64,000 bases of DNA from Eledone cirrhosa (Eukaryota), in assembly GCA_964016885.1 (NCBI GenBank), contig OZ024740.1, positions 180,854,001-180,918,000 of the forward strand, in the 5' to 3' direction. Made by a program: the position numbers and the translations under genes. The notes under the pieces are model-generated. The model was not told the origin of the DNA, did no database searches, and worked only from the letters and a program-made list of their open reading frames with translations. How positions within the stretch are numbered: position 1 is the stretch's first letter; every line of letters starts with the position of its first letter. Positions 1 through 55,715 of the stretch are shown here, piece by piece.

Positions 1-3000
1 GCTACATTTGAAGTAGCTACACCAGCAACAAAATTGCCGAAAAGGGGTCCACTACCACCACCAACAGCCGTGGAGCACATACCCCTCCCAGACGCCACAG
101 AATCCGACAAGGAGTTTGAGGCGGGAGTGAAGTGGCAAACGGTCTGCCGCAAAAAACAAAAAACAAAAAAAACCCTTAGATTCACCCTCCAAAAGCGAAG
201 GCATACAAAGAGGGGGTAAAGGCAGCAAGGAAACTTGCAGCAACACCACCACCATCACCACCACAAACACCAACAACGCAAACACAACAAGACACACACA
301 CCAAACAGCAACAAGAAGAAAACAGCAACAAAATCACCCCTCCTCCCAAAAAGTACACAGCCATAAACATGGCAAAAAAAGAATTCGTACAATATATAAA
401 GCAGCACACAGACATCACACCAAACAAACTACTACACCCCTCCAACACCAAGAACTCTCCCGACAAACATAAGCATCATCGAAATCTCAATAGTACAGTA
501 CAAACCTTAAAAACAAAAATTCTCCAACGCAGTTGGAGACTCCAGAGGGGCGGTTACCAAGACGATATACACTGACATACTCTTGGAAACACCCATGACC
601 AGTGAAAGGGACGGTTCTACTGTCGCTTCACCACACGAACAAGGTAAGTGACCCTTACTCACCAGCCACGTTTCTCATCCAACATGGTTGTACTCAGAAT
701 AGGCAGTATAAATGCACGTGGCCTGGGGTCATCTTGAAAGCAGGGTCACCTGCTCAATGACCTCATGTCACTAAACATAGATGTCGTGGCCATCAGTGAA
801 ACCAGAATCTCCGAAGCACGGGCCTTCGCACCGATCTTCGGCAGCTACGATGTATACGCATGTCCCAGCCGTCCAGGATCGGGGGGAAGGGGTTGCCGTC
901 CTTTTTCGGAGAGACTTGGATCTCGCGATACGGGCCATCTTCCTGGACCCAGAAGGTAAGTCGATGGTGCTGGACGTGACCGGCAGCGAAGGCAATGCCT
1001 TCAGGCTAGTAGCCGTCTGCGCCCCGACAGGGGCAGGACGGCCAGATTTATTCAGACGTCTAGAGATCTTTCTTGGAACGTCCTGCTCTTTAGTGTTAGT
1101 GGGCGACTGGAACGGTATCTTAGATGTATGCTGGGATTGTGTGGGGCTAGTGGATAGGGGAGGAGTGTGCAAGAGCCACACCAACTTGCTCAGACGTTTT
1201 AAACTGTCTGACAGGTATCGACTGGATCACCTGAATATGCCAATGTGGATATGAACAAACCGCATCGGGTCATTCAGATCGTATCTCGATAGGGTATTCT
1301 GCAGAGAACCAGATAAGGCTAGTATAAGTTTTCCACAATTAATATAGTCGACTACACAGACCACAAATTTGTGATCTGTGAGTTCGATATAGACAGACTT
1401 CATAGACAAGGGCCTGGTTACTGGAAGCTGAACGCGTCTTTCCGGGCGCGCAAGGCCTACAGAGACCGGATTAGCGTATAATTAAGCGGGCGTTGGCGGG
1501 AGCGGCCGTCAACAACAGGTGGTGATGGTTTGCCCTGAAAAGGGCAATTAAAGTAGAGTCGATTAGGTTTAGCAAAGGAGTAGTGATAGAGGAAAATAGA
1601 GGAGAGGGAGAGCTAGTCAGAAAGCTAGAAGAGGCGTTTAGGACAGGCATCGCAACCGACGTGCTTGCTGCGAGATTGGCACTCGACCAATTCTTGAACG
1701 CAAAACACGAAGGCTGCGTCCAATGTGCCCGGGTGGCAGAGGCGCAACGTGGTAACAAAGCCACAATTCGTTCTTTGTCTGACCAAAACGGGTGCGTGAT
1801 GTTCGAACCCGAGCGGATGTGTGAAGCTTTTCAGCAGCACTTTGCTGAACTGTTCGGGAGCAGCGGCGGCCCGGATCGGGGCATGGAATTCAGTACATAC
1901 CTCGACGGACTGCCTCGGCTCTCGACAACCGCAGCACAGTGTTGCGAAATGCCAATAACAGCCGGTGGAATACGGGAAGAGATGGCTAACTGCACAAGGG
2001 GTAAATCGCCAGGTTTAGATGGTCTGCCCAACGAGTTTTATGCATTTATGCCAGAACTATTCGGTGACCTCTTGGCAGGCGTCTACTGCAACTGGCAGCA
2101 GAACGGGAGCATTCCCAGTTTTGTGAGACGGGGAGCAGTGGCGCTGCTGAGAAAAGACCCGAACAAAGGGGATGTTATCAATAATTTCAGGCCCATAACC
2201 TTGTTAAACGCAGAGTTCAAATTTTTGGCCGAGGTCTTAGCAACGAAGTTGGCGCTTGTCGTCAAGGGTCTGGTGGGAGAGGCGCAGATATGCGCCATTC
2301 CGGAGAGATCCATACACGACAACCTCCACCTCATGAGATACATCATAAAGAGGGTGGTTAAGGAACCTGGTAAGGGTGGGGCCCGGTTCAACTTGGATCA
2401 ATCCAAAGCATTCGATAGGGTCGACCATCGGTACCTGGTGGCGGTCCTCGAGGCAGCCGGTTTCGGGCCCGTTTTCAGGGGTTGGATCGCAGCAATGTAC
2501 AGCGACATCTGCTCAGTTGTGAGGGTGAACGGTCACCATTCGCAGCCGTTCAGCATCATGCGCTCAGTCCGCCAGGTTTGTCCCCTCTCGTCCCTATTGT
2601 ACGTCTTGGCTCTCGAGCCGTTACTGCACAAACTGGGGGCGATGTGGGGTGTCCCACGCGAACTAGGATGCGGGAAATCCGAGTCGGCTTACGTTGACGA
2701 CGTCACCGTGGTGGTATCGAGCACCAGACACGTCCATATGCTCGGCACCGCTCTAAAGGCATACGAAGCGGTGAAAGGAGCAAAGATAAACCAGGAAAGG
2801 TCGGTGGGCTTGCAGCTCGGCACCTGAAGTGGCAAGTCCATGCCGTCCGACAGAATCGTGGGGCTTTGGACGGACGGACCAGTTAAATTGCTCGGGGTCG
2901 GTTTGGGACCGGACCTCCAGATGGAGAAAAACTGGAACGAGGTGACGAGCAGGGTGGCCTCCCTCACCCAGAAATGGACTGAGAGGAAGCTGTCCCTGAA

Positions 3001-4376: not shown

Positions 4377-7300
4377 GGCGACCTACGTAGTAAATCGTAT
4401 CATCGTGAGCTCCGCAAAGGTTTGTTATTTTCAGTTATTTAAAATTGCCATTTATGGAAAATGTTTATTGTTAACTGTATATAAGTGCTCATACATTGAT
4501 TTCTGAAAAGGAAAATTTAAACTTTTTATAATTATCAAACAAAAATTTTTTCTTTGAAAAATCATGGATGTCTCAGAGTCAATCCTACCTCACAATCTAA
4601 CACCTCACACCGTCACCACCATTGTAAATGTAAGCGGTAGCAATATTTTAAATTTGTCTCAGGCAAACGTTCATTTCCCGCCATTACCAATGAAAGCAGG
4701 TGTTAAAGCCGCCACCACCACCACCAACACAGCGACAACAGAAACAAAAGAAAAGAATAAATTAACTCATGATATCGAAATGAATTCAACCAAAATGAAC
4801 TCTTCCACACCGAACACCACTGACGCCGCCACCACCACAACTGAAACTAAAATTAACAATAGCAAAAATAACGATAACAACAACAGCAACAAGGAAATTA
4901 AGAAAACTACCCTGAGTTTTGCCAGAGTAGCAAAAACGTGCGAAGCGATCCAGGTAACTCAGGAGGAATTAGAAGAAGCCAAAGGAATGGTAAAGAAAGA
5001 TGGGTACAGGGTCAGCCTCAGCCACACACCCCCACCTCCTATGCACCGTGTCTTATCGGACAATTAACATAAAATCGCGCGAGTGGAACGGGCATCCGTG
5101 TACCAAATCCAAAAAGCTTTGGGCCATGTGTGGGCAAAAAAAAACCCACATCAGACGTGGGCAGAAGTATGGAAAAGAGGACGTGTTCTTTGAAACACTA
5201 CAGGAGGCCAGAGAACACTCCATGGCCCCATTAAGAAGTGACGACTTCACACTCATCCAAAGCTATATTGGCCAGAGACTTGTGAATATCAGGGTGACCC
5301 ACGCTCCACCGGCCATCGAAATTCCCTGGCTAATGGCTGCCGTCCTCGCCGGCATCGAGGCCAACACCTAAATAATAGAAATAACAAAAGAAAAGCAGGA
5401 GAACTGGTCCGGATCTGGGATGGAGCTCCTGATCCAAGCGGACCATAAAAGCATTGCGGAGACATCAGAGGTAATAGACCTCACTGACGGCAGCCACCTC
5501 ACCGTAATCGTCGAGGGCAGAATACCTAGGTATGTTGTTTGTGGTGAAGGGACCCACCTAAGGGCTTTCTGCCCTCAGGCTAAAAGGTTGAAGCCAACTC
5601 TCTTACCCACCCCAGTGACTCAACCATCAACACCACCAACAGCAGAAATGGCAGCAACAATTCTAGCAGCAACAACAGAAGCAACTGTAACAGCAACAAC
5701 CCCAGCAACAGTAGCAAAACCACCACCACCACCACCCAACGCCCCAGAACTACACGACACCAAAACACAAATTCCACAAAGACATCGGAGACTTCCGACA
5801 AACACTCTCGAGGAGGATGTATAAGGACATCCTTCCGGAGGAGGCCACATTCAGTGCCACAAAAGGATGGATAAACCATCCTTCCTCTACGAGAAGTAAG
5901 GTAAGTGGTCTTTCCCATCTTTTCCACTCCATTTCAATATGACCTCACTCAGAATAGGCAGCATAAATGCGCGTGGCTTGGGGTCATCATGGAAGCACGG
6001 CCACCTGCTCAACGATTTCAGGTCACTAAACGTAGATGTAGTGGCCATCATCGAGACCAGAATCTACGTAGCACGGGCCTTCGCACCGATCTTCGGCAGC
6101 TACGATGTGTACGCATCTCCCAGCCGTCCGGGCTCGGGAGGGGCGGAGGAGTTGCTGTGCTTTTTCAGAGAGGTTTGGATCTCGCCACACGGGCCATCTT
6201 CCTGGACCCAGAAGGTAAGTTGGTGGTGCTTGACGTGACCAGCGGAGACGGGCAAGCTTTCAGGCTAGTGGCCGTCTATGCCCCGACAGGAGCAGGGCGG
6301 CCTGATTTCTTCCGGCGTCTGGAGACCGCTCTTTAGTGTTAGTGGGCGACTGGAACGGGATCTTAGATGCACGCTTGGACTGAGTGAGATTAGCGGATAG
6401 GGGAGGAGGGTGCAAGAGCCTCACCAACCTGCTCAGGCGTTTTGAACTGTCTGACAGGTACCGATTGGATTTCCCGAATGTGCCAATATGGACTCGCATA
6501 GGGTCATCCAGATCATATCTAGATAGAGTATTTTGTAGAGAAATAGATAGGTCTAGCATAGGCTGTCCACAATTCAAGATAGTCTGCTACACGGACCACA
6601 AATTCGTGATCTGTGTGCCTTAGATAGGCTTCATAGAAGAGGACCCGGCTACTGGAAGCTAAACGCGTCCTTACCAGCGCGCAAGGCCTACAGAGAACAG
6701 ATTAGTGAACTAGTAAGCGGGCGTTGACGGGAGCCATCGTCAACAACAAGTGGTCGTTTGCTCTGAAAAGAGCAATTAGACTAGAGTCCATTAGGTTTAG
6801 TAAGGCTTTAGCAATAGAGAAAAATAGAGCAGCGGGAGAATTAGTTAGAAAATTAGACGAGGCGCTTAGCAAAGGCATCGCGACCGACGTACTTGCGGCG
6901 AAATTGGCCCTTGACCAATTATTCAATGCAAAGCACGAAGGCTGCGTTGTCAGAGCTAGGGTGCGTGCTCTCAGACACGAGGGAACGAAAGCCGTTCAGT
7001 AGGCCCAAGTGGCGGAGGTGCGTCGTGGCAACAAAGCCACGATCCGGTCTTCGGTGGACCACGATGGGCGCATGCTACTCGATTTCGGGCAAATGTGTGA
7101 AGCTTTTCAGGGACACTTCGCTCAGTTGTTCGGGGGCAGCGCCGGGCCGGATCGAGGGATGGACATTAGTGTCTACCTCGAAGGACTGCCGCGGCTCTCG
7201 GCCACTGAGGCGGAGTGTTGCGAAAAGCTGATAACAGACGCTGAAGTACAGGAGGCAATGACTAGCTGCACAAGGTATATATCGCCTGGTTTGGATTGTC

Positions 7301-9517
7301 TGCCCTATGAACTTTACGTACAGATGCCAGACTTGTTCGAAGGCTTCTTGGCGGACATCTACTGCAAATGGCAACAGAACGGGAGAATTCCCAGCTCTGT
7401 GAGCCGAGGAGCTGTGGCGCTGCTGAGAAAGGATCCGAACAAGGGGGATAACATAGATAATTTTAGGCCCATATCTCTGCTATACACAGAGTTCAAGATT
7501 TTGGCCAATGTGCTATCAAAGATGATGGCGCTTGTCGTTGGTGGTCTGGTGGGAGAGGCGCAGATATGCGCCATTCACGACAGATCCATCCACGACAACC
7601 TCCACCTCATGCGATACATCGTAGAGAGGGTAGCTAGGGAACATGGCACGGGTGGGTCCTTGATCAATTTAGATCAGTCGAAAGCTTTCGATAGGGTCGA
7701 CCATCGTTACCTAGCGGCAGTCCTGAGGGCGGCTGTCTTTGGGCCCGTATTCAGAGGCTGGATCGCTGCCATGCACAGCGACATCTCTTCTGTGGTGAGA
7801 GTGAACGGTCACCTTTCGTAACCATTCAACATCATGCGCTCGGTCCGCCAAGGATGTGCCTCTCGTCCCTCTTGTACGTATTGACTCTCGAGCCATTACT
7901 GCACAAACTGGAGACGTTGAGGGGGGGGGGGGGGGTCCCGCGCGAACTAGGATGCGGAAGATCCGTGTCAGCATATGCCGAAGATGTCTCCGTAGTGGTG
8001 TCGAACGCCAAACACATAGAGGCGATCGGCACTACACTAAGAGAATACGAAGCGGTGACAGGAGCAATGATCAACCAGGAAAAGTCAGAGGGCCTGCAGC
8101 TCGGCACCTGGAGAGGAAGGTCCATACCGTCCAACAGCGTCGTCGGGTGCTGGACGGACGGTGACGAGCAGGTTGGCTTCTCTCACCCAGAAATGAGCCG
8201 AGAGGAAGCTATCCCTGAAAGGTCGAGCGGAGGTGGCTAACGCGTATATCGCGTCCGTCATCTACTACCGCCTGACCGACGTACCTTGTCCTAAGCCCCG
8301 CCTGACTGCGCTGGAGCGTTTGCGCTTTCGCTTTTTGTTTAAAGGACGCGCTCCGATGGTCAGGCGGTCCATCTGCTGTCAACACCCGCTACGGGGAGGG
8401 CTGGGTATGCCGTGGCTGATGATGCGCAGACACGCGCTCAGGCTAAGACATCTCCACCTCTTCCTCGACGGTGATCAGGTGTGGTATCCGTTTGCTAGAC
8501 GCGTCTTTTCCCAGCTCGTCTCCTTGACAGAGCTGCAGTCCTGGGTCAAGCGAAGACCGAGAGGGAGCGCTTGGAGACTGGAATGTTTTCAGGCGCTCAC
8601 AGCCCTCGACCAATCGGGCAATGTGATCGGTGGAAACTCCACCTTGCCGTTCTATAGAGGATTAGTGGAGGGGAAGAGTGACGACGTACTTGGGGAAACT
8701 CTAGGCGTCGACGAAAATCAACTAGCCAATCTCTTCGGAAGAACTTTCGGGCCGGGGCCTATGGACAACTTCCAGAAATCCCTGGCCTGGCAGTGCTACT
8801 GAGGAGCTTTGCCAGTTCGGGATAAACTCTACAGGCATGGAGTTGCCGTCAGCCGGGCATGTACGAGATGCGCTCAGGGAGACGAAATCGTCCTGCACGC
8901 ATTCGTCCATTGTCCGAGCATTGCTGACTTGTGGGTTTATGTCGAACACCTGCTGTCGTGTGTGGGACGGATCCAGCTATCAGCTGAGTCCATCGTGAGG
9001 ATTGCCCCGCCCTCTTCCTTTAGCCGGGAAGGGCAGGCTGTTTTTATCTGTCTGGTGGCCATGGCGAAAGAGATAGAATGGTGGACTCGTTTGAAAGGGC
9101 TGAAGACGAGCACTTACCTCTTCGGTGATGCCCTGATTAACTTTTTCAAATTTCATTTGAAAAGGAAAATCAGGGTAGTGCTCTCTTCCCAGCATTTTGT
9201 TGAAAGATGGGTGAGAGAGGCAAGAATGGCCCGAGTGAATGGGCCTACTCTGAGTATGTGTCTGTAAATTAAAGATGGAAAACTGGGAGAGGGCATTTGC
9301 CCTGGTGGTCAGGGTCACTGTGGCTTTTTAATAGGCTCTCTCGACGAATGTCCCTCGGAAGTCTCTCCCCTATTGGGGAATTTTTCATTGTTCTATTATT
9401 ACATCCTCTGTTTCTTGTCTTTTTACACGCAGAAATGCCCAATTGTACCGTCCTCTATAGTCCTATACTGTCCTTATTGTCTACTTCATGTAAACCCTTG
9501 TGGTTAATAAAGAAAGC
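4377..9517 (+). mobile_element. Tx1/L1-clade copy E2 (ATT-tailed group), both ends present, degenerate, ORF1 apparently internally deleted
   Basis: 5' UTR 4377-4563. ORF1 fragments 4564-5904 include a degenerate zinc knuckle (YVVCGEGTHLRAFC). ORF2 5939-9267 is closely similar to E5 ORF2. AATAAA ~9506, (ATT)n tail 9518-9559. Confidence 0.93.
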
Positions 9518-37034: not shown

Positions 37035-40000
37035 GAATCTAGCTGTCGTCTGTTCTACAGTGTGGATGTCATTCACTTCGCACAGAAGTTTTGTTCAAAT
37101 TTATTGAGGAAATTTTGTGAGTTCAAACTTAATTTTGATACAATTGTGTAGCTTGACCCTCCGTCTGAACTGTCAGGCGATGGGTCAGCTCATCTTTACC
37201 CCTCCTAGAGGTGAAAAACCTGTTTTAAAAAAATTTTGTGTAAAAGAATTTCAATCGTCTAACAGAAATGTTAAACGCAGCGAACGAAAATAGTGGTGGG
37301 GGGACAGCGGTAAGAGTTGCAAGCTCGCACGCTTTAGTCCCCCCTTCCTTCCCAACTAACGTCATAGAGAAGGAAGGAAAATATTAAAATAAAAACAGAC
37401 GAATCTGCGGAGAAAAAAAATGACGAAAACACAAATCTGGACATGGATTCCAACAACGAAAAAAAAAAATTTGAAAAATTGCATGACAATACTAATAACA
37501 CAAACAAAGACACAACAAACACAAAAATAACATTTGAAAATAACACCATATCAGAAAGCAAAGTAGACGACAAGATTTCATTTGCACAGAAAACAAAGAA
37601 ATCTTTGACTTATATAGCGGAAAACATTTCAGATGTGGTACGAAGGATCACGGACGCCAAACAATACATAAGTGAAGGAGAGAATGGTATTTTATCGGTA
37701 AAAATGCCTCAAGAATTCACGAAAGACATTGAAAGCCGAACGGTCAAGTTTCGGACTATCAACAACAGTACAAAAAAACCTGAACAGCCTTCTCAAGCAG
37801 ATATCAAAACAGTACTCACAGAAGTACTTATTGAAACCACTTTCATAAGAAAAAACAGACTGTATGGAAGCCTAGCAATTATCATGAAGAACGAATCGGC
37901 GGCAAAAAAATGTGCTTTGTCACCGATTCGTTCGAAAAATTTCACCTTTTATCCATCTTATATGGGGAAAAGAACTCAACGCATATGGCTGGATGCAATG
38001 ATGCCAGATGTGGACTACTGCTGGCTCATAGCTGGCTTCATCGATCCAGTGAATGACAACGTGATTTCCATTGGGAAAACCACAGGAAATGCGTTCAGTG
38101 GAACAGGTATAGAGCTGGTAGTGCAAATGAAGCCTGAACGCATCGCCCAAATACCCGACAGAATCCTATTAGAGGACCACAGGTATATAAACATTAGCGT
38201 GGAGGGGAGAAGGCCGTCCTGCCATATCTGTGCAGGCAGAGGGCACCTGAAGGCCGCTTGTCCCCAACTCAACAAAAAGAAGACCCTGCTACCAACACCA
38301 GCTCCACCACCACCACCACAACAGATAAACAAACAACAAAACTCAGTCCCACCCAACCCGTCCCTCAGTAAAACCACAACACCACCACAACACAAACAGT
38401 CACAACACATTACCCCAAAACAAAATACAGGCCCACCCAACCTCTCACTCAATAAAACAACACAACCACCGCAGACACAACACACAACACAGTCTAACAT
38501 AGTGACATCCATCTCCCCCACAAAGAAAACCAACACGGAAACATTACCAGCAAACATACCTCTTCCCTCCAACACTGAAGATAACCCAACGAATTCGGAG
38601 GAAGAAACGGAGTCCTTCAGACAGATTAAAAGGAAAAAAAGAAAACATGTGCAAAACACACAAGGCCAAACAACCCCCACCCAAATCTCAACACAATCCA
38701 ACAAAACAGAAAACACCCCTCCAGCAACAAACAAAACCAAACCTGCCCCTCCCCTCTGAGAAACACTCACACCATCCGAAAAAAAGACATTACACTATAC
38801 TTACATCAACAGAAACAATAATAAATTAAATGAACTCATATACAATAATCCTTCGGTACAAACCGAAGGTGTAAACTTTGTTTCGTCAGAAAACTACCCA
38901 CATTTAAAAATAATAATGATCCCAATAAACCTCTACCAAAAACTAAAAAAGGATTTTAAGGAGGACGTAGGACCACCCTCTGTCAAACCCATAAACCGCG
39001 TCCTACTAAAAAGCTTTCCCCCTCCCCTTCCCCTCCCCAACACAACTCCAAACACCCCAACCCCACCACACACTGACGACCCCACACCACCACAAGACAC
39101 CCCTTCACCCAACACCCCCGACCCCATGGAAGTCGTGCAACCCGAACCCCGGGAAGCGGAAAGGTAGGTCTCTACACTCTCCTTTGGCTCTGCCGACCAC
39201 ATGGATGTGTTAAGAGTAGGATGTTTGAATGCACGTGGCCTGGGCTCAACTTGGAAGCAAGCAAAGCTTCTAAATGACCTCAGGTCATGTAGTATAAATG
39301 TAATGGTTATCTGTGAGACTCGAATCAGCGTCGTGCGGCAGCTGGCCCCCACCTTCGATGACTTTGAGGTGCATGCATCTCTCTGTCAACCTGGAGGTGG
39401 GGGTGGGGTTGTTGTACTGCTGCAAAAACACCTGGGTCTTGCCGTACAGGTTGTGCACTCGGCCCCGGAGGGTCGCTTGTTGGTGCTAGACGTTGGCAGT
39501 AGTGAAAGTGCGGCCTTGAGACTGGTCGCCGTCTACTCCACTTTCGGAGCTGAACGGCCCGACTTCTTCCAGCGTTTGGAGACTTTTCTGGGAACGTCGC
39601 GTTCCCTGCTTCTAGCGGGGATTGGAATGACATCCTGGATGCACGTTGGGACTATGCAGGAGCATGTCCTAATAGAGGGGGGTGTAACAGCCTCAAGGGG
39701 TTACTCGACCGTTTTAACTTGGTCGATAGATATCGACTAGATTTTCCAACTGTGCCTACCTGGACTTGGAGAAACCACAGTGGTCAATCTAGATCGTACT
39801 TAGATAGATTCTTAGTTAGAAGTAAGGATAGGGACATATTAAGCTGTCTAGAAATGCGCACGGTTGGCTACACGGATCACAAATTAGTGACCTGCGTGGT
39901 CAATCTCGACAAAACACATAGACAGGGTCCCGGTTACTGGAAACTTAATTTGTCTTTACCGGCAAAAGAGACTTACAGAAACCGGATTAGCAGATTAGTT

Positions 40001-42843
40001 AAGGAGAGGTTGACGGGTGCAATCGTCAACAACCGATGGTGGGCATCTCTCAAAAGAGAGATTAGAACAGAATCAATAAGTTATAGCAAGATGTTAGCTG
40101 CCGATAGGAATAGAAACGAGAAAGAATTAACAGGTAAATTAGAAGAGGCAATCAAGAGCGAAGATGTGGCCAGAGTGCTGGCATCGAGGACGGCCTTGAA
40201 CCAGTTTTTCGATGCAAAGCACGAAGGCTGCGTCATTCGAAGTAAAATACGTGCTCTAGGTAATGAGGGGGCCAAAGCCGTTGGATGGGCCCGCGTGACA
40301 GAAGCTAAGAGTGGAAATCGATCCACCATCCGGTCGTTGCAAGACGAAGATGGACGGGTGATCCGGTAGCCTAAGCAGATATGCGAGGCCTTTCAAAGGC
40401 ACTTTGCCCGATTTTTCGGGGGAGGCGAGGGTCCGGGCGGGGGCGTGGATTTCGGTCCATACCTCGACGGCCTGCCGCGTCTCTCGAACGAAGAGGCAGA
40501 GTCCTGCGAGGGACCAACCTCGGCTGATGAGATCGGAGATGCGCTGAGCCAATGCAGCAGACGCAAATCTCCAGGTCTCGATGGTATACCTTACTAACTT
40601 TATTTAGCAATGCCGGTCTTCTTCTCCGAACTCCTCGAAGCAGTCTACTACAATTGGCAGCAGAACGGGAGAATTCCTTGTTCTGTAGCCAAGGGCGTAG
40701 TCACGCTGGTGAGGAAGGACGAGAACAAGGGGGATAGTATAAATAATTTTCGGCCCATAACCCTGCTAAACACAGAGTTAAAGATTTTGGCCAAGGTGTT
40801 AGCAAAGAGGTTGGCGCTTGTCGTGGGTGGACTGGTGGGAGATGCGCAGACATGTGCTATCCCATCCAGGTCCATTCACAATAACCTCCACCTCATGCGA
40901 TACATCATAGAGATGGTTGGCAACAAACCCGGCTTAGGTGTGGCCCTGATCAACTTGGATCGGTCTAAGGCCTTCGATAGGGTCGACCATGGTTACCTGG
41001 ATGCGGTGCTAGCGGCGGCTGGGTTCGGTCCTGTTTTCAGAGGCTGGATCACTGCCCTACATAGCAACCACATCTGTTCTAGGATCAAGGTGAACGGCTA
41101 CCTTTCGATGCCGTTCGAAATCACACGATCCATTCGACAGGGGTGCCCACTCTCCTCCGTTCTGTACGTATTGACTCTCGAGCCTTTACTGAGGAAGTTG
41201 GAGTTGTTGCAGGGTATCCCCCTGGAACCAGGATTGAGCAAAGCGGTGTCGGCCTACGCCGATGACGTAACAGTAATGGTATCGACCGACTCGGAGATCG
41301 AGTCGATCGGTACCTTACTGGAGGAGTACGAAAGGTTGTCAGGAGCGAAACTGAACCGGGAAAAATCCATCGAGCTGCAACTCGGAACGTGGAGAGGCAG
41401 ACCGATGCCTCCTGACGGTGTCGTAGGACACTGGACGGAGGGCCCGGTAAAGTTGCTTGGGGTCTGGTTTGGACCGGACCTCCAGGTGGAAAAGAACTGG
41501 AACGAGGTTACGAACAAGGTGTTTGCACTAACCCAGAAATGGGCCAAGTGTAAGCTGTCCCTAAAAGGCCGGGCGGAGGTGGCGAACATTTACATAGCGT
41601 CCGTCACTTACTACCGCCTGACTGTCGTGCCTTGCCCTAAGGAAACACTCACCACCATGGAACGCATGCTCTTCCAATTTCTTTGGAAGAAGCGCCCTCC
41701 TATGGTGAGAAGATCCATCTGCTGCCAACAACCTTCGAAAGGAGGGCTGGGGATGCCGTGGTTGATGATGTGTAGGCACGCATTAAGGCTACGGCACCTA
41801 CAGGTATTCCTCACTGGTCAACCGGTGTGGGCTCCGTTCGTGAAACGAGCCTTTCCGAGACTCGTCTCGCTCACCGAGCTACAGTCCTGGGTCAAGCAAA
41901 GATCCGGAAAACTGGGAGACTGGCACACTGAGTGTGCTCAGGCGCTCAGGGCTCTCTGGCAAGCGGGCCAGGCCATCGGTGGAGAATCCACCTCATCATT
42001 CTATAGAGGGCTGGTGGCTAGCAGGGGCGATGACACCCTTGGAGAGTCGCTGGACATGGAAGAAGACGAACTGGCCAGCCTGTTCGGTAGGACTTTCGGC
42101 CCAGGACCAATGGACAACTCCCAGAAGTCACTGGCCTGGCAGTGCTACCGGGGGGCTCTACCCGTTCGAGAGAGGCTCTACAGACACGGGCGCCCGGGCA
42201 GGGATCCCTCAAAAAAGATTTGCCCTAGATGCGTGCGTCACGAAGAAACCGTTGCGCACGCATTGGTGCAATGTCCGGGCGTGGCTGATCTGTGGGGCTA
42301 CGCCGAACGACTGCTGTCGCGGGTGGCGCCGATTAAATTGACCGCCGAGTCCGTGATGACAATCAAACCGCCTCCCCTCTTCACAAAGGAAGCAAAGGCG
42401 GTTTTTCTGTGCGTAATAGCCATGTTGAAAGAGGTTGTTTGGTGGACACGATTGAAAGGTCTGAGGTCAGGCAACTTCCTCTCTGGCCATAGTCTGGTCT
42501 ACTTCTTCCGATATCACTTCGGAAGAAGGATAAGAATTGAGAGAGAGGTGCTTGGCCACAGGCAGTTTTATGAAAGGTGGGTGTAAATGGCTCGTGTAAA
42601 TGGGCCTTCTCTGTATACCATCCTGTAGGTAAAGAAGTAAAGGAGAGGGGAGCACCTTCTCCATGTGCTCCCCGGGCAAAGGATTGCACACTTTTTCGGG
42701 GGTGTGTGCAACCCCCATCACGTCCCCTCCCTTTTGAGGTTATTTTCGATTATTTTTATGTTACACCCTTTTTACTCGATTATATGTAAACTCCCCCTTT
42801 GTATTTGTCCCTTCTTTTTATGCCTTTATGGTAAATAAAGAAA
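37035..42843 (+). mobile_element. Tx1/L1-clade copy E3 (TCTA-bounded group), full length, degenerate
   Basis: ORF1 ~37268-39167 with CCHC knuckle CHICAGRGHLKAAC. ORF2 39201-~42628 (APE, RT with AYADD, CPRC..H..C). AATAAA at 42834, then (TCTA)n 42844-42869. Confidence 0.93.
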
Positions 42844-42869: not shown

Positions 42870-45800
42870 AGACGTGTGTAACTTCGCGGAGAAGTTTCCG
42901 TTAATTTATGTAAGAAAAAAACGTGAGTTTTTAGTTAAATTTTATATCATTGTGTAACTTGACCACCCGTCTGGACCTTCAGGTGGTGGGTCAACTCATT
43001 TTCGCCCCTACAGGGGCGAAATATCCATTTAAAAAAATGTTCTCCATCGAATCTTGGAAAAAATATTGTAAAATTTTGATTACGTTATGAACGCTGCATC
43101 CAACGATAATGGTGGTGGAGAGGCGGTAAGACTACAAAGCTCGCAGTCAACAACGTCTTCTTCACTAGATACTATAGAGATGGAAAGACAAAATGAAAAT
43201 AAAAAAACGAATTCATATCCAAACAACACAAATGACACCAAACAGTTCAATGACAACAAAAATAACAGCAAAACCAATAATGATGATAAAAGCAACAATG
43301 ATAACAACAACAAATAAAAAAATAAAGACAACACCAATAACACCAGCATCAAAGACAACAACAACACCAAGGAAAATACGGATGATACCAACATCGGTGA
43401 CAACAAGAATAACAACAACAATAACAACAATAATGACAACACCACCAATACGGATTCCACAAAGAAACCAGAAATCTCCTTTGCAGAGAAAGTTCAAAAG
43501 AAGGAAGAATTGATATATCTCGACATAACCAATGCTGAACAACAATATGTCACTTTCGAAAAAAATGGTGCTTTCAGCATCAATTCTCCGGTAGAAATTC
43601 GCAAGGGAACTGCTCTCAAAACGATAATTTTTAGGACAGTTTCCAAGTCTACCCGAAAACCAGTCCAATTGTCACAGAAAGAATATGGACTGGTTTTCAA
43701 AAGTTCAATGAATGATATTGCATTCATTCAAAGAAGCAAACCTTTTGGGAGTATTTCGGTACTCATGAAGGATCAATTGACGGCCCAAAATTACTCTGTG
43801 TCGCCAATTGTATGTAACCTGTACACCTTTTTCCCTACATACATGGGAAAAAGGATACAAAAGATCAGAATCACGAGTGTCACACCAAAGGTGAAGATAT
43901 GGTGGATACTGTGCGGCTTCATCAATTTTGATGAAGACAGAATACTGTCAGTAGGAAAGTCCCCCAGAGATGTATCAATGGGACTAGCATTGAATTTCTG
44001 GTGCAAATGAGCCCAGAGGAATAGCTATGATCCCACAGCGTGTACTCCTGGACGGACTAACCTACATAAACTTTTCGGTTGAGGGTAGGCGGCCTTCATT
44101 TTACCATTGCTTTAGCAGAGGTCACCTGAGGGATTCCTGTCCTAAATTAATGAACCAAAAAAAGGCTCTTCTGCCGACACCCATCAAAACAACACAACCA
44201 CCAACACCACCACAACAACAACACCACCAACACACAAAAATAACCACAACAAACACAGTCCCACCCAACCCCACTCCACCTAAAACCACTGCAAAATCAC
44301 ATACAGACACACCAGCTCCCCAAGACATACCCCTCCCCAATCACACAGACGATACAACAGATGAGGCTATCTCGCCATCACACAGTGAAGACGAGGGAGA
44401 ACCCCATCGCTCGAAAAGAAAGAAAAGACATCACAAAAGCAAAAAACCAGCAAACACTACCACAAACATACAATCACCAACACAAATAACAAAAGTATCA
44501 CAAACAAAACCCCCACCTCCTGAAAACAAAATACCTACAACAAAACGAAAGCACACACAAGAACTACAGACAAAAAGAAACACAACACAAGAAAATTACA
44601 CTAACACTTACATAAACACTGAAAACAAAACACTAATGGAGACCATCACGAACGACCCTTCGAACGACCCTAAAAATAGCAAAAACTGAACCTAAAACTG
44701 ATTAGGGTCCCTATACATACTTATAGGTCCCTAAAAGAAACATTTGAGAAGGATGTGGGTAATTCCTGCGTGAAACCACTCAACCTCGTCCTTCTCAAAT
44801 GCCTCCCCACCTCAGACACCCCCATCCCACCAGACCCCACACCACCAAACATCTGCGTCCCCACCCCGCCGGAAACCACCACCCATCCAGACAACCCTTC
44901 CAACACCCCCATGGAAATCGTGCGGCCTGGTCCCCAGGAGGCGAAGGGTGAGTGATCTCTTTTCCTCTTTTAACTTTTCAGCACCAACATGGCCGATATA
45001 AGAGTTGGCTGTATGAACGTACGCGGCCTGGGGATGCCCTGGAAACAGGGCAAACTCTTAAACGAACTCAGGTCGCACAGTATGGATGTGGTAGACATTT
45101 GCGAGTCCAGGATCGACGGCGAGCGACAGCTGGCCCCAATCTTCGATGACTTTGAGATCTACGCATCTCTCTGTCAATCGGGGGGTGGGGGCGGAGTTGC
45201 CGTTTTGCTGCGGAAACACCTGGGCCTCGTAACACAGACGGTACATCTGGACCCGGAGGGTCGACTGGTGGTCCTAGACGTTGACGGTAGTGAAGGTGGA
45301 GCCTTCAGGCTGGTGGCTGCATATGCACCATCCGGGACACCGCGGCCAGACTTCTTCAAACGTCTAGAGACTTTTATGGGAACGTCCCGCTCCTTGCTTT
45401 TAGTGGGGGACTGGAATGGAATCCTAGATGCACGGTGGGACTATGTGGGAGCATGTCCCGATAAAGGGGGGTGTAACAGCCTCAAACAGTTAATCGACCG
45501 ATTTGACCTGGCTGAGAGATATTGACTAGATTTTCCGACTGCGCCACTGTGGACGTGGAGTAATCGTAGCGGAACATCGAGATCGTACCTAGATAGGGTT
45601 CTAGTTAGAAATAAGGATAGGGACATGTTAAGCTGTCCACAACTGTTCATGGTTGCCTATTCAGATCACAAACTAGTGACCTGCATGGCCAACCTTGATA
45701 GAACCCATAGACAAGGACCCGGCTACTGGAAGCTGAACTTGTTGTTACCGACAAGCAAAGCCTACAGTAGACGGATTAGCACTTTAGTTAAACAGCACTT

Positions 45801-48552: not shown

Positions 48553-48609
<57 letters not shown>
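48553..48609. repeat. (AAT)19 tract shared tail-to-tail by D1 and E5
   Basis: Direct reading. Confidence 0.96.
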
Positions 48610-48611
<2 letters not shown>

Positions 48612-48871
48612 TTTCTTTATTAACCACAAGGGTTTACATAAAGTAGACATTAAGGACAGTGCAGGACAATGCAGGACGGTACAAATGGGCATTTCTGCGT
48701 GTAAAAAAACAAAAACAGAGGAAGTAACAAAAATAACAATGAAAATAACAATGAAAAATTCCCCAATAGGGGGGAGACTTCGGAGGGACATTTGTGGAGA
48801 AAGCCCAGTAAAAAGCCACAATGACCCTGACCACCAAGGCAAGTGCCCTCTCCCAGTTTTCCACCTTTAGT

Positions 48872-51800
48872 TTACAGATATATACTCAGAGTCGGCCCAT
48901 TCACTCGGGCCATTCTTGCTTCTCTCACCCATCTTTCAACAAAATGCTGGGAAGAGAGCACTTCCTTCTCTACTCTGATTTTCCTTTTCAAATGAAATTT
49001 GAAAAAGTCAATCAGAGCATCACCGAAGAGGTAAGTGCTCGTCTTCAGCCCTTTCAAACGTGTCCACCATACTATCTCTTTCGCCATGGCCACCAGACAG
49101 ATAAAAACTGCCTGCCCTTGCCGGCTAAAGGAGGAGGGCGGGGAAATCCTCACGATAGACTCAGATGATAGCTGGATCCGTCCTAAACGCGACAGCAGGT
49201 GTTCGACATAAACCCACAAGTCAGCAATTTTCGGACACTGGACGAGTGCGTGCAGGACGGTTTCGTCGCCCTGCGCGCATCTCGGACATGCCCGGCTGAC
49301 GGCACCTCCATGCCTGTAGAGTTTATCCCGAACTGGCAAGGCTCCTCGGTAGCACTGCCAGGCCAGAGATTTCTGGAAGTTGTCCATAGGCCCCGGCCCG
49401 AAAGTTCTTCCGAAGAGATTGGCTAGTTTATTTTCGTCGACGCCTAGAGTTTCCCCAAGTACGTCGTCGCTCTTCCCCTCCACTAATCCTCTATAGAACG
49501 CCGAGGTGGAGTTTCCACCGATCACATTGCCCGATTGGCCGAGGGCTGTGAGCGCCTGAAGACATTCCAGTCTCCAGGCGCTCCCTCTCGGTCTTCGCTT
49601 GACCCAGGACTGCAGCTCCGTCAAGGAAACGAGCTGGGGAAACACGCGCCTAGCACACGGCGACCACACCTGATCACCGTCGAGGAAGAGGTGGAGATGT
49701 CGTAGCCTGAGCGCGTGCCTGCGCATCATCAGCCACGGCATGCCCAGCCCTCCACGTAGCGGGTGTTGACAACAGATGGACCACCTGACCATCGGAGCGC
49801 GTCCCTTCCACAAAAAGCGAAAGAGCAAACGCTCCAGCGCAGTCAGGCGAGGCTTAGGACAAGGTACGACGGTCAGACGGTAGCAGATGACGGACGCGAT
49901 GTACGCGTTAGCCACCTCCGCTCGACCTTTCAGGGATAGCTTCCTCTCCGCCCATTTCTGGGTGAGAGAAGCCATCCTGCTCGTCACCTCGTCCCAGTTT
50001 TTGTCCGTCTGGAGGTCCGGACCGAACCAGACCCCTAGCTATTTAACCGGTCCGTCCGTCCAGCGTCCGACGACGCTGTTGGACGGCATGGACCTGCCTC
50101 TCCAGGTGCCGAGCTGCAGGCCCACTGACTTTTCCTGGTTGATCATTGCTCCTGTCACCGCTTCGTATTCTCTTAGTGTAGTGCCGATCGCCTCGATGTG
50201 TTTGGCGCTCGACACCACTACGATGACATCGTCCGCATATGCTGACAATGATCTTCCGCATCCTAGTTCGCGCGGGACCCCCCTCAACGTCTTCAGTTTG
50301 TGCAGTAATGGCTCGAGAGTCAATACGTACAAGAGGGACGAGAGGGGACATCCTTGGCGGACCGAGCGCATGATGTTGAACGGTTCCGACAGGTGACCGT
50401 TCACTCTCACCACAGAGCAGATGTCGCTGTGCATGGCAGCGATCCAGCCTCTGAAGACGGGCCCAAAGCCAGCCGCCCTCAGGACTGCCGCTAGGTAACG
50501 ATGGTCGACCCTATCGAAAGCTTTCGACTGATCTAAATTGATCAAGGACCCACCCGTGCCAGGTTCCCTAGCTACCCTCTCTACGATGTATCGCATGAGG
50601 TGGAGGTTGTCGTGGATGGATCTCTCGGGAATGGCGCATGTCTGCGCCTCTCCCACCAGACCACCAACGACAAGCGCCAACCTCTTTGCTAGCACCTTGG
50701 CCAAAATCTTAAACTCTGTGTTTAGCAGAGTTATGGGCCTGAAATTATCTATGTTATCCCCCTTGTTCGGATCCTTTCTCAGCAGTGCCACCGCTCCTCG
50801 GCTCACAGAACTGGGAATTCTCCCGTTCTGTTGCCAGTTGCAGTAGACGTCCGCCAAGAGGCCTCCGAACAAGTCTGGCATCTGTACGTAAAGTTCATAG
50901 AGCAGACCATCCAAACCAGGCGATTTACCCCTTGTGCAGCCAGTCATTGCCTCCCTTACTTCAGCGGCTGTTATCGGCTTTTCGCAACACTTCGCCTCAG
51001 TGGCCGAGAGCCGCGGCAGTCCGTCGAGGTAGACACTAAAGTCCATCCCTCTACCCGGCCCACCGCTGCCCCCGAACAGCTGAGCGAAGTGTCGCTGAAA
51101 AGCTTCACACATTTGCCCGGGATCGAGTAGCATGCGCCCGTCGTGGTCCACCAAAGACCGGATCGTGGCTTTGTTGCCACGACGCGCCTCCGCCACTCGG
51201 GCCCATTGAACGGCTTTCGTCCCCTCGTGTCTGAGAGCACGCACCCTTGCTCTGACAACGCAGCCTTCGTGCTTTGCATTGAAGAATTGGTCAAGGGCCA
51301 ATTTCGCCGCAAGCACGTCGGTCGCAATGCCTTTGCTAAGCGCCTCGTCTAATTTTCTAACTAGTTCTCCCTCTGCTCTATTTTTCTCTATTGCTAAAGC
51401 CTTGCTAAACCTAATCGATTCTATTCTAATCGCTCTTTTCAGAGCAAACCACCACTTGTTGTTGACGATGGCCCCCGTCAACGCCCGCTTAACTAGTTCG
51501 CTAATCCGGTCTCTGTAGGCCTTGCGCGCTGGTAAGGACGCGTTTAGCTTCCAGTAGCCGGGTCCTCGTCTATGAAGCCTATCTAAGTCAAGCACACAGA
51601 TCACGAATTTGTGGTCCGTGTAGCTGACTATCTTGAATTGTGGACAGCCTATGCTAGACCTATCTATTTCCCTACAAAATACTCTATCTAGATATGATCT
51701 GGATGACCCTATGCGGTTTGTCCAAGTCCACATTGGCACATTCGGGAAATCCAATCGGTACCTGTCAGACAGTTCAAAACGCCTGAGCAGGTTGGTGAGG

Positions 51801-52291
51801 CTCTTGCACCCTCCACCCCTATCCGCTAATCCCACACAGTCCCAGCGTGCATCTAAGATCCCGTTCCAGTCGCCCACTAACACTAAAGAGCGGGACGTTC
51901 CAAGAAAGGTCTCCAGACGCCGGAAGAAATCAGGCCGCCCTGCTCCTGTCGGGGCATAGACGGCCACTAGCCTGAAAGCTTGCCCGTCTCCGCTGGTCAC
52001 GTCCAGCACCACCAGCTTACCCTCTGGGTCCAGGAAGATGGCCCGTATGGCGAGATCCAAACCTCTCCGAAAAAGCACAGCAACTCCTCCACCCGATCCA
52101 GGACGGCTGGGAGATGCGTACACATCGTAGCCGCCGAAGATGGGTGCGAAGGCCCGTGCTTCGGAGATTCTGGTCTCGCTGATGGCCACTACATCTATGT
52201 TTAGTGACCTGAGGTCGTTGAGCAGGTGACCCTGCTTCCATGACGACCCCAAGCCACGCGCATTTATGCTGCCTATTCTGAGTGAGGTCAT
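48872..52291 (-). pseudogene. E5 ORF2 (APE-RT-Cys/His, ~1139 codons) with a single in-frame stop at 50039-50041
   Basis: ORFs 50039-52291 and 48872-49987 are in the same frame. GPVK*LGVWFG here versus GPVKLLGV in other copies. AYADD is intact. Confidence 0.93.
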
Positions 52292-52326
52292 GTTTAAAAT
52301 AGAGTGGAAAAGATGGGAAAGACCAC

Positions 52327-54407
52327 TTACCGTACTTTTGGTAGAGGAGGGATGGTTTTTACATCCCTTTTCACTTGATCGTCTGGTGAAGGGACCGTTG
52401 AATCGTCCCTTCGGCTGGTCGTCGGCTCTTCTAAGAGAATGTCTGAGTATACTCTTCGATTGATGGTTCCTCCTAGGTCCCTGAAATCACCAACTGCGTT
52501 GGGGAATTTCGTTTTAATGTTTGTGTATTGTTTCTGTGCTATTTTTAGCAGTCTTATGTTAGTTGGCGTTTTGATTGGTGCTGGTATTATGTAGTCCTGT
52601 TGTGAAATGTCTGTGTGTTCAATTATGTAAGTCATTAGTTTCTTGTTGTGTGTATTTATTGCCGTGCATTTGTTTTTCTGGGGGTGGGGTGTGGTTCTGC
52701 TATTTTCTTGTCGTTGTTGCTGGGTGTGTGTGTTTTGTTGTTGTGTTTGCGATGTTGGTGCTTGTGGTGGTGGTGTTGAAGGTGTTGTTGACGGTGGGGT
52801 TGTCGCCGGTGGTGATGGTGGTGCTAGTGTGGGTGGTGATGGTGTTGGTGTTGTTGCTGCTGTGGGTCTCTTTGCAGTAGACTTTACTCTTTTCTCATTT
52901 CTTTCCTCCCTTTTCAAAGGCGACGATGCGCTGCTTCTGCGTTTGTGCTTTCTTACGACCTTTTGCCATCCCTCTCCCACCTCACACTCCATGTCTGATT
53001 CTGTGAGGTCGGGGAGGGGTACCAGCTCCACTCTTTCACTTGTTGTTGTTGGTGATGTTTGCACTGGAGTCTCTGTTGCAGCTGCATTTGGTATTGCTGT
53101 TGTTGTTGTTAATATTTCCACTGCTGCTGCTGTTTTTGATTTCCGTGGAGTGGGTATGGGTGCCACGGACCTATCGTTCCTGGTTGCCGGTAGCCGTGGA
53201 GCCGGATTCGGAAGGAGGGTTTTTTTTTCCTTTCTCAGGGTCTTCTCGTTGCAGAAGGCCCTGAGGTGAGTCTTCGATCCACAGCGAAAGCATTTCGGGC
53301 GTTTGCCCTCAACACTTATGGGCAGTTGAGTGCCGTTATCGAAGTCTATCACATCCGGGATAGCTTCGATGCACTCCTGGTTGGTTTGGATTAGCATCTC
53401 AATGGAGGAGCCGACCCAATCTTCTCTTACTTTTTTCTGTACTTGCAGTACAGTTATTTTGTCCTCGATTCCGACGAGGACAGACGCGGCCAGCCAAGAA
53501 GGGGTCATTCCGGGGGGGACGTGGGTCAGTTTGACCCTCACAATTTTTTGCCCGCAGTAGGAGGGCACCAACACCATTTCCTCGCTCCTTAGGGTCACTA
53601 CTGATTGGGCCTTTGCCTCCTGGGTGTGGCAAAAAGTACGTCTACGGTGGCATATTTTTTGCCTCGGGTGATGTGCGTTTTCCGCTGCCACACAGACCCC
53701 AAGGCTTTTTGTATTTGGGCCTCTGTGGCTCTTTCCACCCTACGGGATTTTGTACTTACTGTACGGTACGTGACCGTACAGTGCTCTTGGGTTTCGAAAA
53801 ATTTTTCCGCTGCCTTGCAGATTGCTCGGTGTCCGTTCTTTGTCACCATCTTCTTCGCTTCCTCTAATTCCTCATTTGTTATGAGGATTGTTTCCAAGTT
53901 TTTCGCAATACCTGCAAATGAGATTGGTTTTTCTCTGCTGTTGTTGTTGTCGTCAGAGCTGCTGGTACTTTTGTTGTTGCTGCAGGTACTACGACTACTG
54001 CCTCCGCCGCTGTTGCTGTGGTTGTTGTTGGTGTTGCTCCTGCTAATGCTGTTGTTGTTTATGCTGCTGGTGATGCTGTTGCGGCTGCTACTGTTGTTTT
54101 CATTGTCACTGTTGTTGTTGTTATTACGGCTGCTACTGCTATTATTCCTGACGTCAGACGAATGAACTGGGTTTTCGTATTTCCCGCACACCTGTTTCGT
54201 CGCTGTCGTCGTCGTCGTAGAGAAACCTTGCACGCTTTGCACGAGACTTTTCTTTTCTTTCGTCACTTGCGAAAGAGAAGGGAGGGAGAGAGACACATTT
54301 AAAGAAGGGAGGGAGAGAGACAATCTTCTCTCTGCTGTAGTGATGATTGAGGAAGAAGAAGACGGAATGAGTGGGAGTGACGTATGAAATTTCTTTTTCG
54401 TAGCCAT
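52327..54407 (-). pseudogene. E5 ORF1 (gag-like, CCHC knuckle, Asn/Ser- and Pro/Thr-rich tracts) with one frameshift near 53620
   Basis: ORFs 53598-54443 and 52327-53691 overlap; knuckle CFRCGSKTHLRAFC; homologous to E2 ORF1 (SFA..K..EELEEAK.MV.K.G). Confidence 0.85.
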
Positions 54408-54644
54408 GTTGTTTTCTTGTTTAAAATGAAATTTTGGGTACAAAACCCCAATAACTGGTTATTTAACCCCGAAGGGCCAAATAACGGACAGAAAGACCCC
54501 TCTCACGAGGAGGAGGGTGTCTTTATCAACAATTTGGTTAAAGTTTTAAACAATTTACAATTGTTTTAACGGTTAAAAATTACTATACCTTACAGAGCCG
54601 AGCCTCCGTCAACCATGGCATTCAATAATAATAATAATAATAAT

Positions 54645-55715
54645 GTTTTCTTTATTAACCACAAGGGTTCACATAAAGTAGACATTAAGGACAGTACAGG
54701 ACAATACAGGACGGTACAAATGGGCATTTCTGCGTGTAAAAAAACAGAGGTTGAAATAAAATAACAAAGAAAAATTCCCCAATAGGGGGGAGACTTCCAA
54801 GGGACATTTGTGGAGAAAGCCCATTAAAAGACCACAGTGGCCCTGACCACCAGGGCAAGTGCCCTCTCCCAGTTTTCCACCTTTAATTTACAGACACATA
54901 CTCAGAGAAGGCCCATTCATTCGGGCCATACTTGCTTCTCTCACCCATCTTTCAACAAAATGCTGGGAAGAGAGCACTTCCCTCTCTACTCTGATTTTCC
55001 TTTTCAAATGAAATTTGAAAAAGTCAATCAGAGCATCACCGAAAAGGTAAGTGCTCGTCTTCAACCCTTTCAAACGTGTCCACCATACTATCTCTTTCGC
55101 CATGGCCACCAGACAGATAAAAACTGCCTGCCCTTCCCGGCTAAAGGAGGAGGGCGGGGCAATCCTCACGATGGACTCAGATGATAGCCGGATCCGTCCT
55201 AAACGCGACAGCAGGTGTTCGACATAAACCCACAAGTCAGCAATTTTCGGACACTGGACGAGTGCGTGCAGGACGGTTTCGTCGCCCTGCGCACATCTCG
55301 GACATGCCCGGCTGACGGCACCTCCATGCCTGTAGAGTTTATCCCGAACTGGCAAGGCTCCTCGGTAGCACTGCCAGGCCAGAGATTTCTGGAAGTTGTC
55401 CATAGGCCCTGGCCCGAAAGTTCTTCCGAAGAGATTGGCTAGTTGATTTTCGTCGACGCCTAGAATTTCCCCAAGTACGTCGTCGCTCTTCTCCTCCACT
55501 AATCCTCTATAGAACGCCGAGGTGGAGTTTCCACCGATCACATTACCCGATTGGTCGAGGGCTGTGAGCGCCTGAAGACATTCCAGTCTCCAGGCGCTCC
55601 CTCTCGGTCTTCGCTTGACCCAGGACTGCAGCTCCGTCAAGGAAACGAGCTGGGGAAATACGTGTCTAGCAAACGGCGACCACACCTGATCACCGTCGAG
55701 GAAGAGGTGGAGATG
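54645..55715 (-). mobile_element. Tx1 copy E6, 5'-truncated, nearly identical to the E5 3' end
   Basis: ORF 54888-55685 matches the E5 ORF2 C-terminus; tail (AAT)7 at 54624-54644. Confidence 0.94.

Follow-up and report, generated by a model that had tools for sequence, protein, structure and literature searches.

The window analysed here, a stretch of 64,000 nucleotides (nt) from Eledone cirrhosa (contig OZ024740.1, positions 180,854,001–180,918,000; positions below are those of the window), contains six copies, E1 to E6, of a two-ORF (open reading frame) long interspersed element (LINE) of the L1 group, with a conserved U1-type splice donor at the ORF1 stop codon and a pyrimidine tract after it. 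ORF2 carries an endonuclease (PF03372), a reverse transcriptase (PF00078) and a zf-RVT domain (PF13966) in Pfam, and in comparisons with solved structures it was nearest to L1 ORF2p (E value 8e-53, versus 3e-21 for R2); by these domains and this closeness to L1 the elements are L1-group retrotransposons without long terminal repeats (LTRs). The name Tx1, given to them in a preliminary description of this DNA made from the sequence alone, is used here as a provisional label, with which the ORF1 type and the target specificity agree. ORF1 is of the RRM/CCHC type found in that clade: a C-x2-C-x4-H-x4-C pattern is invariant across five ORF1s, a zf-CCHC domain was recognised in the ORF1 of L237 (a relative described below), and the structural look-alikes, which serve as a lead only, are CCHC/ZCCHC3 proteins. 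Insertion is into simple repeats, with (ATT)n directly preceding the 5′ ends of 13 of 13 copies of family A1 and 22 of 22 of family A2 (35/35 for the A type) and (TATC)n as the corresponding repeat for E3 and E4. Target-specific Tx1-clade LINEs likewise have an AP-type endonuclease, two ORFs, a CCHC-type ORF1, insertion into a fixed repeat and tandem copies (PMC4640811, citing Kojima and Fujiwara 2004); papers given by PMC number are cited here, and throughout, for the portions of their text that were available.

E5 (48605..54623, minus strand) is a full-length, Tx1-like copy of family A1, 98.6% identical to the intact copy L014; a single frameshift disrupts ORF1, and ORF2 has a single in-frame stop. 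Its ORF1 (52327..54407, minus; 698 amino acids (aa) in intact copies) has a CCHC knuckle and RNA-binding look-alikes and ends K-V-R-TAA. After a pyrimidine-rich spacer upstream of the ORF2 ATG (52292..52321, minus) comes ORF2 (48872..52291, minus), which encodes the three domains named above, is 1,139 aa long when intact and ends in TAA. The 3′ untranslated region (UTR) contains a C-run/TATT/G-run motif (48759..48774, minus), common in altered form to the A and B families and lying inside the putative intron discussed below, which may act as a hairpin, and then AATAAA (48616..48621, minus) and the (ATT)n tail. E5 has inserted into the (ATT)n tail of E6. Intact copies are known for families A1 (E5; copy L014), A2 (E2; L358), B2 (E4; L163) and B5 (L356), and about 7,000 A-type tails are found in the genome.

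The preliminary description had reported a donor at each of five ORF1–ORF2 junctions, at 644, 5901, 39164 and 44948 on the plus strand and 52330 on the minus strand, and all five were located there. Three of them interrupt the reading frame in phase 2: E2 (AAG|GTAAGT, 5898..5906, plus; family A2), E3 (AAG|GTAGGT, 39161..39169, plus; family B1) and E5 (ACG|GTAAGT, 52325..52333, minus), where the stop occupies +2 to +4 and the donor ranks second among the 317 GT sites of intact L014. The other two, E1 (AAG|GTAAGT, 641..651, plus; family A3) and E4 (AGG|GTGAGT, 44945..44955, plus; family B2), are in phase 1, with the stop at +6 to +8. These two registers, also noted before, are family traits and not copy damage, as intact or long-frame relatives agree with them: copies of the E4 family with an open frame of 577 codons end A-K-G-E-stop, copies of the E1 family E-Q-G-K-stop, and intact copies of the E5 type K-V-R-stop. 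Together with the distant family L237, in which the stop lies upstream of the donor, there are three registers in all (stop at +2, at +6, or upstream).

To score the donors, sites were anchored on the ORF1 stop and paired with the U1 5′ end taken from locus L276, with a threshold of −10 kcal/mol, in 13 families (11 from the same genome and two from a distant host), which do not amount to 13 independent trials because they share ancestry. A U1-complementary donor lies on or adjoins the ORF1 stop in 12 of the 13 (11/11 and 1/2, respectively). Ten families reach the threshold, two have weaker true donors (−8.1 and −6.8 kcal/mol) and one has none, while with the stop fixed and the flanks shuffled (2,000 shuffles) the chance of reaching −10 kcal/mol or better is 0.2–1.8% per family. 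The motif is thus present beyond chance, and the expectation that it would be conserved outside the copies of the window was borne out by further families and a second host. In six elements of the same genome the donor ranks first or second among 224–346 GT sites. The sequences flanking it cannot be aligned between families, and the silent and non-coding positions match the donor consensus: the Gly codon is GGT in 5/5 phase-1 families (GGT makes up 24% of Gly codons), the Arg codon ends in G in 6/6 phase-2 families (35% expected), and the non-coding +6 is T in all six of the latter. Two apparent exceptions turned out to be decayed copies of donor-bearing families (9 of 12 copies of family D have the donor); a few decayed single copies lack it. 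The donor is under constraint at the nucleotide level and is conserved at about 40% ORF2 identity, and it stands, as in a facultative intron, at the end of the structural gene.

The motif is always tied to the ORF1 stop, 13–53 nt upstream of the ORF2 AUG, and the spacer that follows it is 71–86% pyrimidine in 11 families. In E4 the spacer (44958..44981, plus) ends in TTTTCAG, an acceptor-like site 8 nt upstream of the ORF2 ATG; such a terminal YAG is seen in 5 of 11 families, and in B2 no acceptor scores better. Near the ORF1 start, E3 and E4 also have in common a donor-like GCG|GTAAGA (37307–37315 and 43123–43131), which could, with the acceptor-like spacer end of E4, give an ORF2-directed RNA.

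As a partner for the donor, the preliminary description had named a T-rich tract with acacgcAG in the 3′ UTR. This sequence is present in E2 (9421..9432, plus; its last G is 9432, not 9431), E5 (48695..48708, minus) and E6 (54730..54743, E5 type, minus), the donor–acceptor interval in E5 is 3,636 nt, and a frame continued in phase 2 past the acceptor closes after 19 codons in E5 and E6 and after 8 in E2. Scored by a simple pyrimidine rule, it is the best acceptor of A1 and A2, and in A1, A2 and D the stop after 19 codons is found in phase 2, with none within 40 codons in phase 1. It is not a general partner, being limited to tails of the E2/E5/E6 type. It is found in the clade with a TAA-ended ORF2, and also in one tail type that is unplaced. 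The caveats attached to it apply to whole families, as the E1 family has cac and 3′ UTRs of the E3/E4 type are without an equivalent AG; a TTTTACWCG motif that adjoins the acceptor also occurs in families with no AG there.

In most families ORF2 ends in a pyrimidine, TAG and then a purine-rich stretch, which suggests another candidate acceptor, the stop codon itself. In E3 (42604..42632, plus) the pyrimidine-rich last codons lead to the TAG at 42626–42628, the best-scoring acceptor of that element, followed by a G and by TAA in the donor's phase; in intact relatives of E4 the TAG is followed by two bases and TGA. Donor and ORF2 end were paired within the same physical copies (47 pairs), leaving out 5′-truncated tail types and A4, whose donor and tail are in different copies. 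In 8 of 8 TAG-ending families a stop lies 0–3 codons past the TAG in the donor's phase, against 4/16 for the other phases and 12–17% when every YAG site of these elements is counted. The old C family adds four tails that agree with the match, although they have a phase-0 stop as well. On the ORF2 tree the ancestral state is likely phase 1 with TAG, and each of the two moves of the donor to phase 2 is accompanied by an altered 3′ end. In B1 and B3, with a phase-2 donor, the stop is one base nearer and in phase 2, and the phase-1 stop is gone (the next is 52 and 36 codons away, respectively), while in B2, their sister, both ends are still in phase 1. A1, A2 and D, with a phase-2 donor, have a TAA-ended ORF2 with acacgcAG downstream; there is no AG at the ORF2 stop of the E5 clade because ORF2 ends in TAA. 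The pattern of matched phases gives moderate support to real excision.

Relatives of these elements, 37–44% identical over the first 120 residues of ORF2, form tandem arrays in eukaryotic DNA binned into a bacterial metagenome-assembled genome (MAG). The MAG is labelled uncultured Arenicella (CAXXMW01 contigs, L235–L279), so that arrays of eukaryotic LINEs with units of 6.4–6.8 kb stand in a bacterial record. In one family, L237, the ORF1 stop is followed by a G and then GTAAGT, which places the stop inside the exon, in 76 of 76 occurrences in 42 overlapping loci, and this donor ranks fourth among 366 GT sites; a further donor lies 15 nt and a strong acceptor 251 nt past the ORF2 stop. Donors behind ORF2 in the distant host are found 15 and 41 nt past the stop, or on it. 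Both distant families have an intron-like donor/acceptor pair in the 3′ UTR (L237, 9483–9719; L272, 5536–5679), and no deletion between these sites was seen in the copies inspected (37 donor and 36 acceptor occurrences, 42 overlapping loci). Among 14 more distant elements (about 30% identity) only one has an ORF1-stop donor; the trait therefore belongs to a sub-lineage. In this one element, L188, the best of 312 sites is on the ORF1 stop, ORF2 is TAA-ended, and no acceptor passes the pyrimidine rule; its ORF1 (361–1935) has what we take to be an esterase-like motif. U1 small nuclear RNA (snRNA) genes flank some of the distant L1-group elements (L276, 3036–3199 and 9961–10137; L187, 5815–5977), and one element is followed by U2.

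From these sequences we consider it marginally probable that the donor opens a facultative intron which would hold all of ORF2, its removal giving an ORF1-only mRNA. U1 would bind the donor at the ORF1 stop, and part of the transcripts would be spliced to a weak acceptor at or past the ORF2 stop. The ancestral acceptor would have been ORF2's own TAG, with a nearby stop kept in the donor's phase so that the end of ORF1 is almost unchanged, and in the E2/E5/E6 clade acacgcAG, 160–180 nt downstream, would have taken over. The spliced product would yield ORF1 protein alone, and the unspliced RNA would serve as ORF2 message and as the template copied into new insertions, the presumed purpose being a large excess of ORF1 over ORF2 protein from RNA that does not itself give rise to insertions. 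The spliced product should escape nonsense-mediated decay, because its junction would adjoin the stop and the normal 3′ end would be kept. A more specific version, possible and held more tentatively, is an intron running exactly from the ORF1 stop to the ORF2 stop, in which the second stop would be the 3′ splice site, frame changes 3.5 kb apart would be compensatory, and the spliceosome would set the ORF1p:ORF2p ratio. Relative to the preliminary interpretation, the donor has gained through its constraint and its occurrence in more families and a second host, whereas the acceptor has shrunk to some tails and spliced genomic copies were not found among 6,981 tails.

Excision of ORF2 has to be set against a number of observations on the acceptors, the distant host and the genomic copies. 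The 140 nt upstream of the polyadenylation signal are devoid of AG in family B2, the young and intact family of E4, as well as in two other tail types. The match of phases was tested post hoc and covers about four independent events; the purine-rich sequence past the TAG makes stops common; the tract before the TAG is weak (12–15 of 20 nt are pyrimidines), and the TAG of B2 and B3 has a competing CAG 7 nt upstream. The copy L350 combines a phase-1 donor with a TAA-ended ORF2, A1, A2 and D retain a phase-1 stop that they would not need, and the TAG-GTRAG of B1, B3 and B4a is equally readable as a second donor, as in the distant host. There, L272, the sister family of L237, has no donor at ORF1 and a perfect one 41 nt past ORF2.

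As for the copies, a retrocopy of the spliced RNA is expected to show the join 85 nt from its 3′ end, and retrotransposed copies with the join predicted at the outset numbered 0 among 6,981 A-type tails; the patterns covered joins to A1/A2-type donors, joins at the ORF2 TAG and to D-type donors being outside their reach. In 6,899 of these tails the CAG before the last exon is kept. Fifty of the 82 without it were inspected, including the 21 (all 20 with AAG and the one with ACG) in which the predicted join was conceivable; each had a point change, a truncation or a deletion whose start is not a GT, and in none was the join present. On the donor side the +1 G is kept in 3,420 copies, and of the 73 copies without it the 50 inspected all continue into the spacer or ORF2. 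This absence counts against frequent splicing of template-competent RNA. It is partly expected, because an ORF1-only RNA needs ORF2p in trans and loses the conserved 3′ UTR motif; among human L1s, spliced copies amount to about 2% of the full-length number, and the figure for those dependent on assistance in trans is 11 of 6,609 (PMC5860796). For the B2 donor exon followed by a non-T at +2 there were 0 matches, with no positive count to compare; a join at the ORF2 TAG would keep GT, so this count has no bearing on the revised model. Internal deletions, which are common in the A family (36 in the loci examined, L018–L324; 64–2,747 nt, mostly with short microhomology) were considered as splice scars and rejected, 35 of the 36 having no GT-AG ends and one being a loose fit inside ORF2. 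The deletions of L046 and L078, two pattern-selected loci, end at the acceptor and do not start at GT.

Contigs on E5 from four sequencing runs of uncertain kind did not include the 52331/48694 join among the 12 joints listed, and those of two runs cross the E5 donor unbroken; given that these runs could be of DNA and that rare variants are lost from contigs, neither splicing nor its absence follows from this. Two word-index searches of protein databases returned no ORF1 relative; a profile search matched 1,419 proteins, and the predicted A1 extension is in none of the 150 matches listed. One protein, P0101, known from the protein alone, ends Q-G-K like the phase-1 families. A first metagenome scan and a viral scan were empty.

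That the donor is conserved and no single acceptor is, together with the lack of spliced retrocopies, would also be explained if U1 small nuclear ribonucleoprotein (snRNP) bound the site and excision were rare or never occurred. U1, aided by the spacer, would then keep the long transcript, which has no introns, from being cleaved and polyadenylated too early, or would govern its nuclear export or stability. The distant-host donors at or just past the ORF2 stop, kept in every inspected tail, agree with this, and in the Arabidopsis element EVD donor-bound U1 has the additional role of repressing premature termination (PMC5580714). The phase-matched stops past the ORF2 TAG and their shift with the donor's phase are left unexplained, however, and there is little to guard against: downstream polyadenylation hexamers are few, ORF2 of 6 of 8 elements has none, and those of ORF1 lie upstream of the site. 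We regard U1 binding alone, the main rival to excision, as rather unlikely; by analogy with EVD, it can coexist with excision. Quite improbable, in our judgement, is that motif and spacer form a termination–reinitiation signal from ORF1 to the ORF2 AUG, with an incidental likeness to a donor. The constant place of the motif at the stop, a short distance before that AUG, fits such a signal, and there is precedent in SART1, where reinitiation is documented, and in L1, where it is a proposal (PMC5972666), but the variants found (GTAAGT, GTGAGT, GTAGGT and GTAATT, always with G at −1) are those of the donor consensus, and in the distant host the motif also stands past ORF2, with no ORF downstream.

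The donor might instead be used with other partners, such as acceptors of host genes or of the next tandem copy, or with the spacer end as a switch giving an ORF2-only RNA. Copies do insert into each other's tails, as the A-type 5′ ends show, several families have the spacer-end YAG, and human L1 makes a spliced ORF2-only RNA (PMC2896524). Against this, none of 30 loci found by the ORF2 N-terminus has ORF1 missing, and selection would act on the element only where the product aids its spread; we hold such use to be very unlikely. The least probable explanation is an inherited accident, in which Arg or Gly-Lys before a strong stop context produced the motif and no selection acted on it. TAAG and TGAG are strong termination contexts, and the families share ancestry; the accident is largely refuted by the three registers, the conservation of silent and non-coding positions between unalignable flanks at about 40% ORF2 identity, and the single such site among the 14 more distant elements.

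The closest parallel to a facultative intron holding ORF2 is the shGAG subgenomic RNA of the Arabidopsis Ty1/copia element EVD (Oberlin et al. 2017, PMC5580714). There, too, a donor marks the end of the structural gene, and a facultative intron yields an mRNA for the structural protein alone beside the unspliced genomic RNA, with a double role of U1; EVD, however, is an LTR element with one polyprotein ORF and a short intron coupled to premature polyadenylation (PMC5580714). The elements described here are two-ORF LINEs, with a predicted intron of 3.5 kb that would contain a whole enzyme gene and a normal 3′ end, and the arrangement would work like shGAG although it does not belong to that system. 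Human L1 offers a case of an L1-group LINE with splice sites that are functional and conserved, in the SpIREs (PMC5860796) and SpORF2 (PMC2896524), in which the donor is in the 5′ UTR and kept through overlap with a RUNX3 site, the products lose the 5′ UTR or ORF1, and splicing is judged harmful (PMC5860796, PMC2896524). Here, in contrast, the donor is at the ORF1 stop and removal of ORF2 is predicted. HAL1 (half-L1) elements, which are genomic, non-autonomous and ORF1-only, resemble the proposed product in having ORF1 without ORF2, but here an RNA isoform is proposed and no ORF1-only genomic copy was found. The introns of TART lie in antisense RNA (PMC1636488). In the literature searched, with subscription papers, Repbase reports and supplements outside it, we found no description of a donor at a LINE ORF1 stop; Tx1 is mentioned, with no such donor, in the available text of PMC4585706, PMC5203782, PMC10294476 and PMC13282606.

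LINEs are regarded as bicistronic RNAs that lack introns and are damaged by splicing, and a donor selected across families with about 40% ORF2 identity suggests that one lineage recruits U1 on purpose. If the RNA is spliced, this would be a new answer to the need for far more ORF1 than ORF2 protein, as well as a control point for the host, and expression counts of such elements would mix two RNAs. LINEs would then have arrived, by convergence, at a counterpart of copia's Gag-only RNA, with retroviral env splicing as its mirror image. The predictions are exact as to junction, phase and family, and several of the families, young and intact, number thousands of copies.

The window also shows that ORF1 modules have been swapped on nearly identical ORF2s (4377–5860 versus 52370–54623; also L014, L358, L339 and L350). 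E2 has an ORF1 unlike that of E5 and an ORF2 93% identical to it, the similarity beginning about 40 nt upstream of the donor, and A1, A2, D and L350 differ in their ORF1s or junctions, yet are separated by ORF2 branches of just 0.015–0.03. Finally, an unrelated reverse transcriptase ORF of 852 aa lies at 55713–58271 (plus), presumably RTE-like from its appearance, with a moderate donor-like site (−8.1 kcal/mol) 11 nt from its stop, and fragments of the same element are found at 46703–48000.

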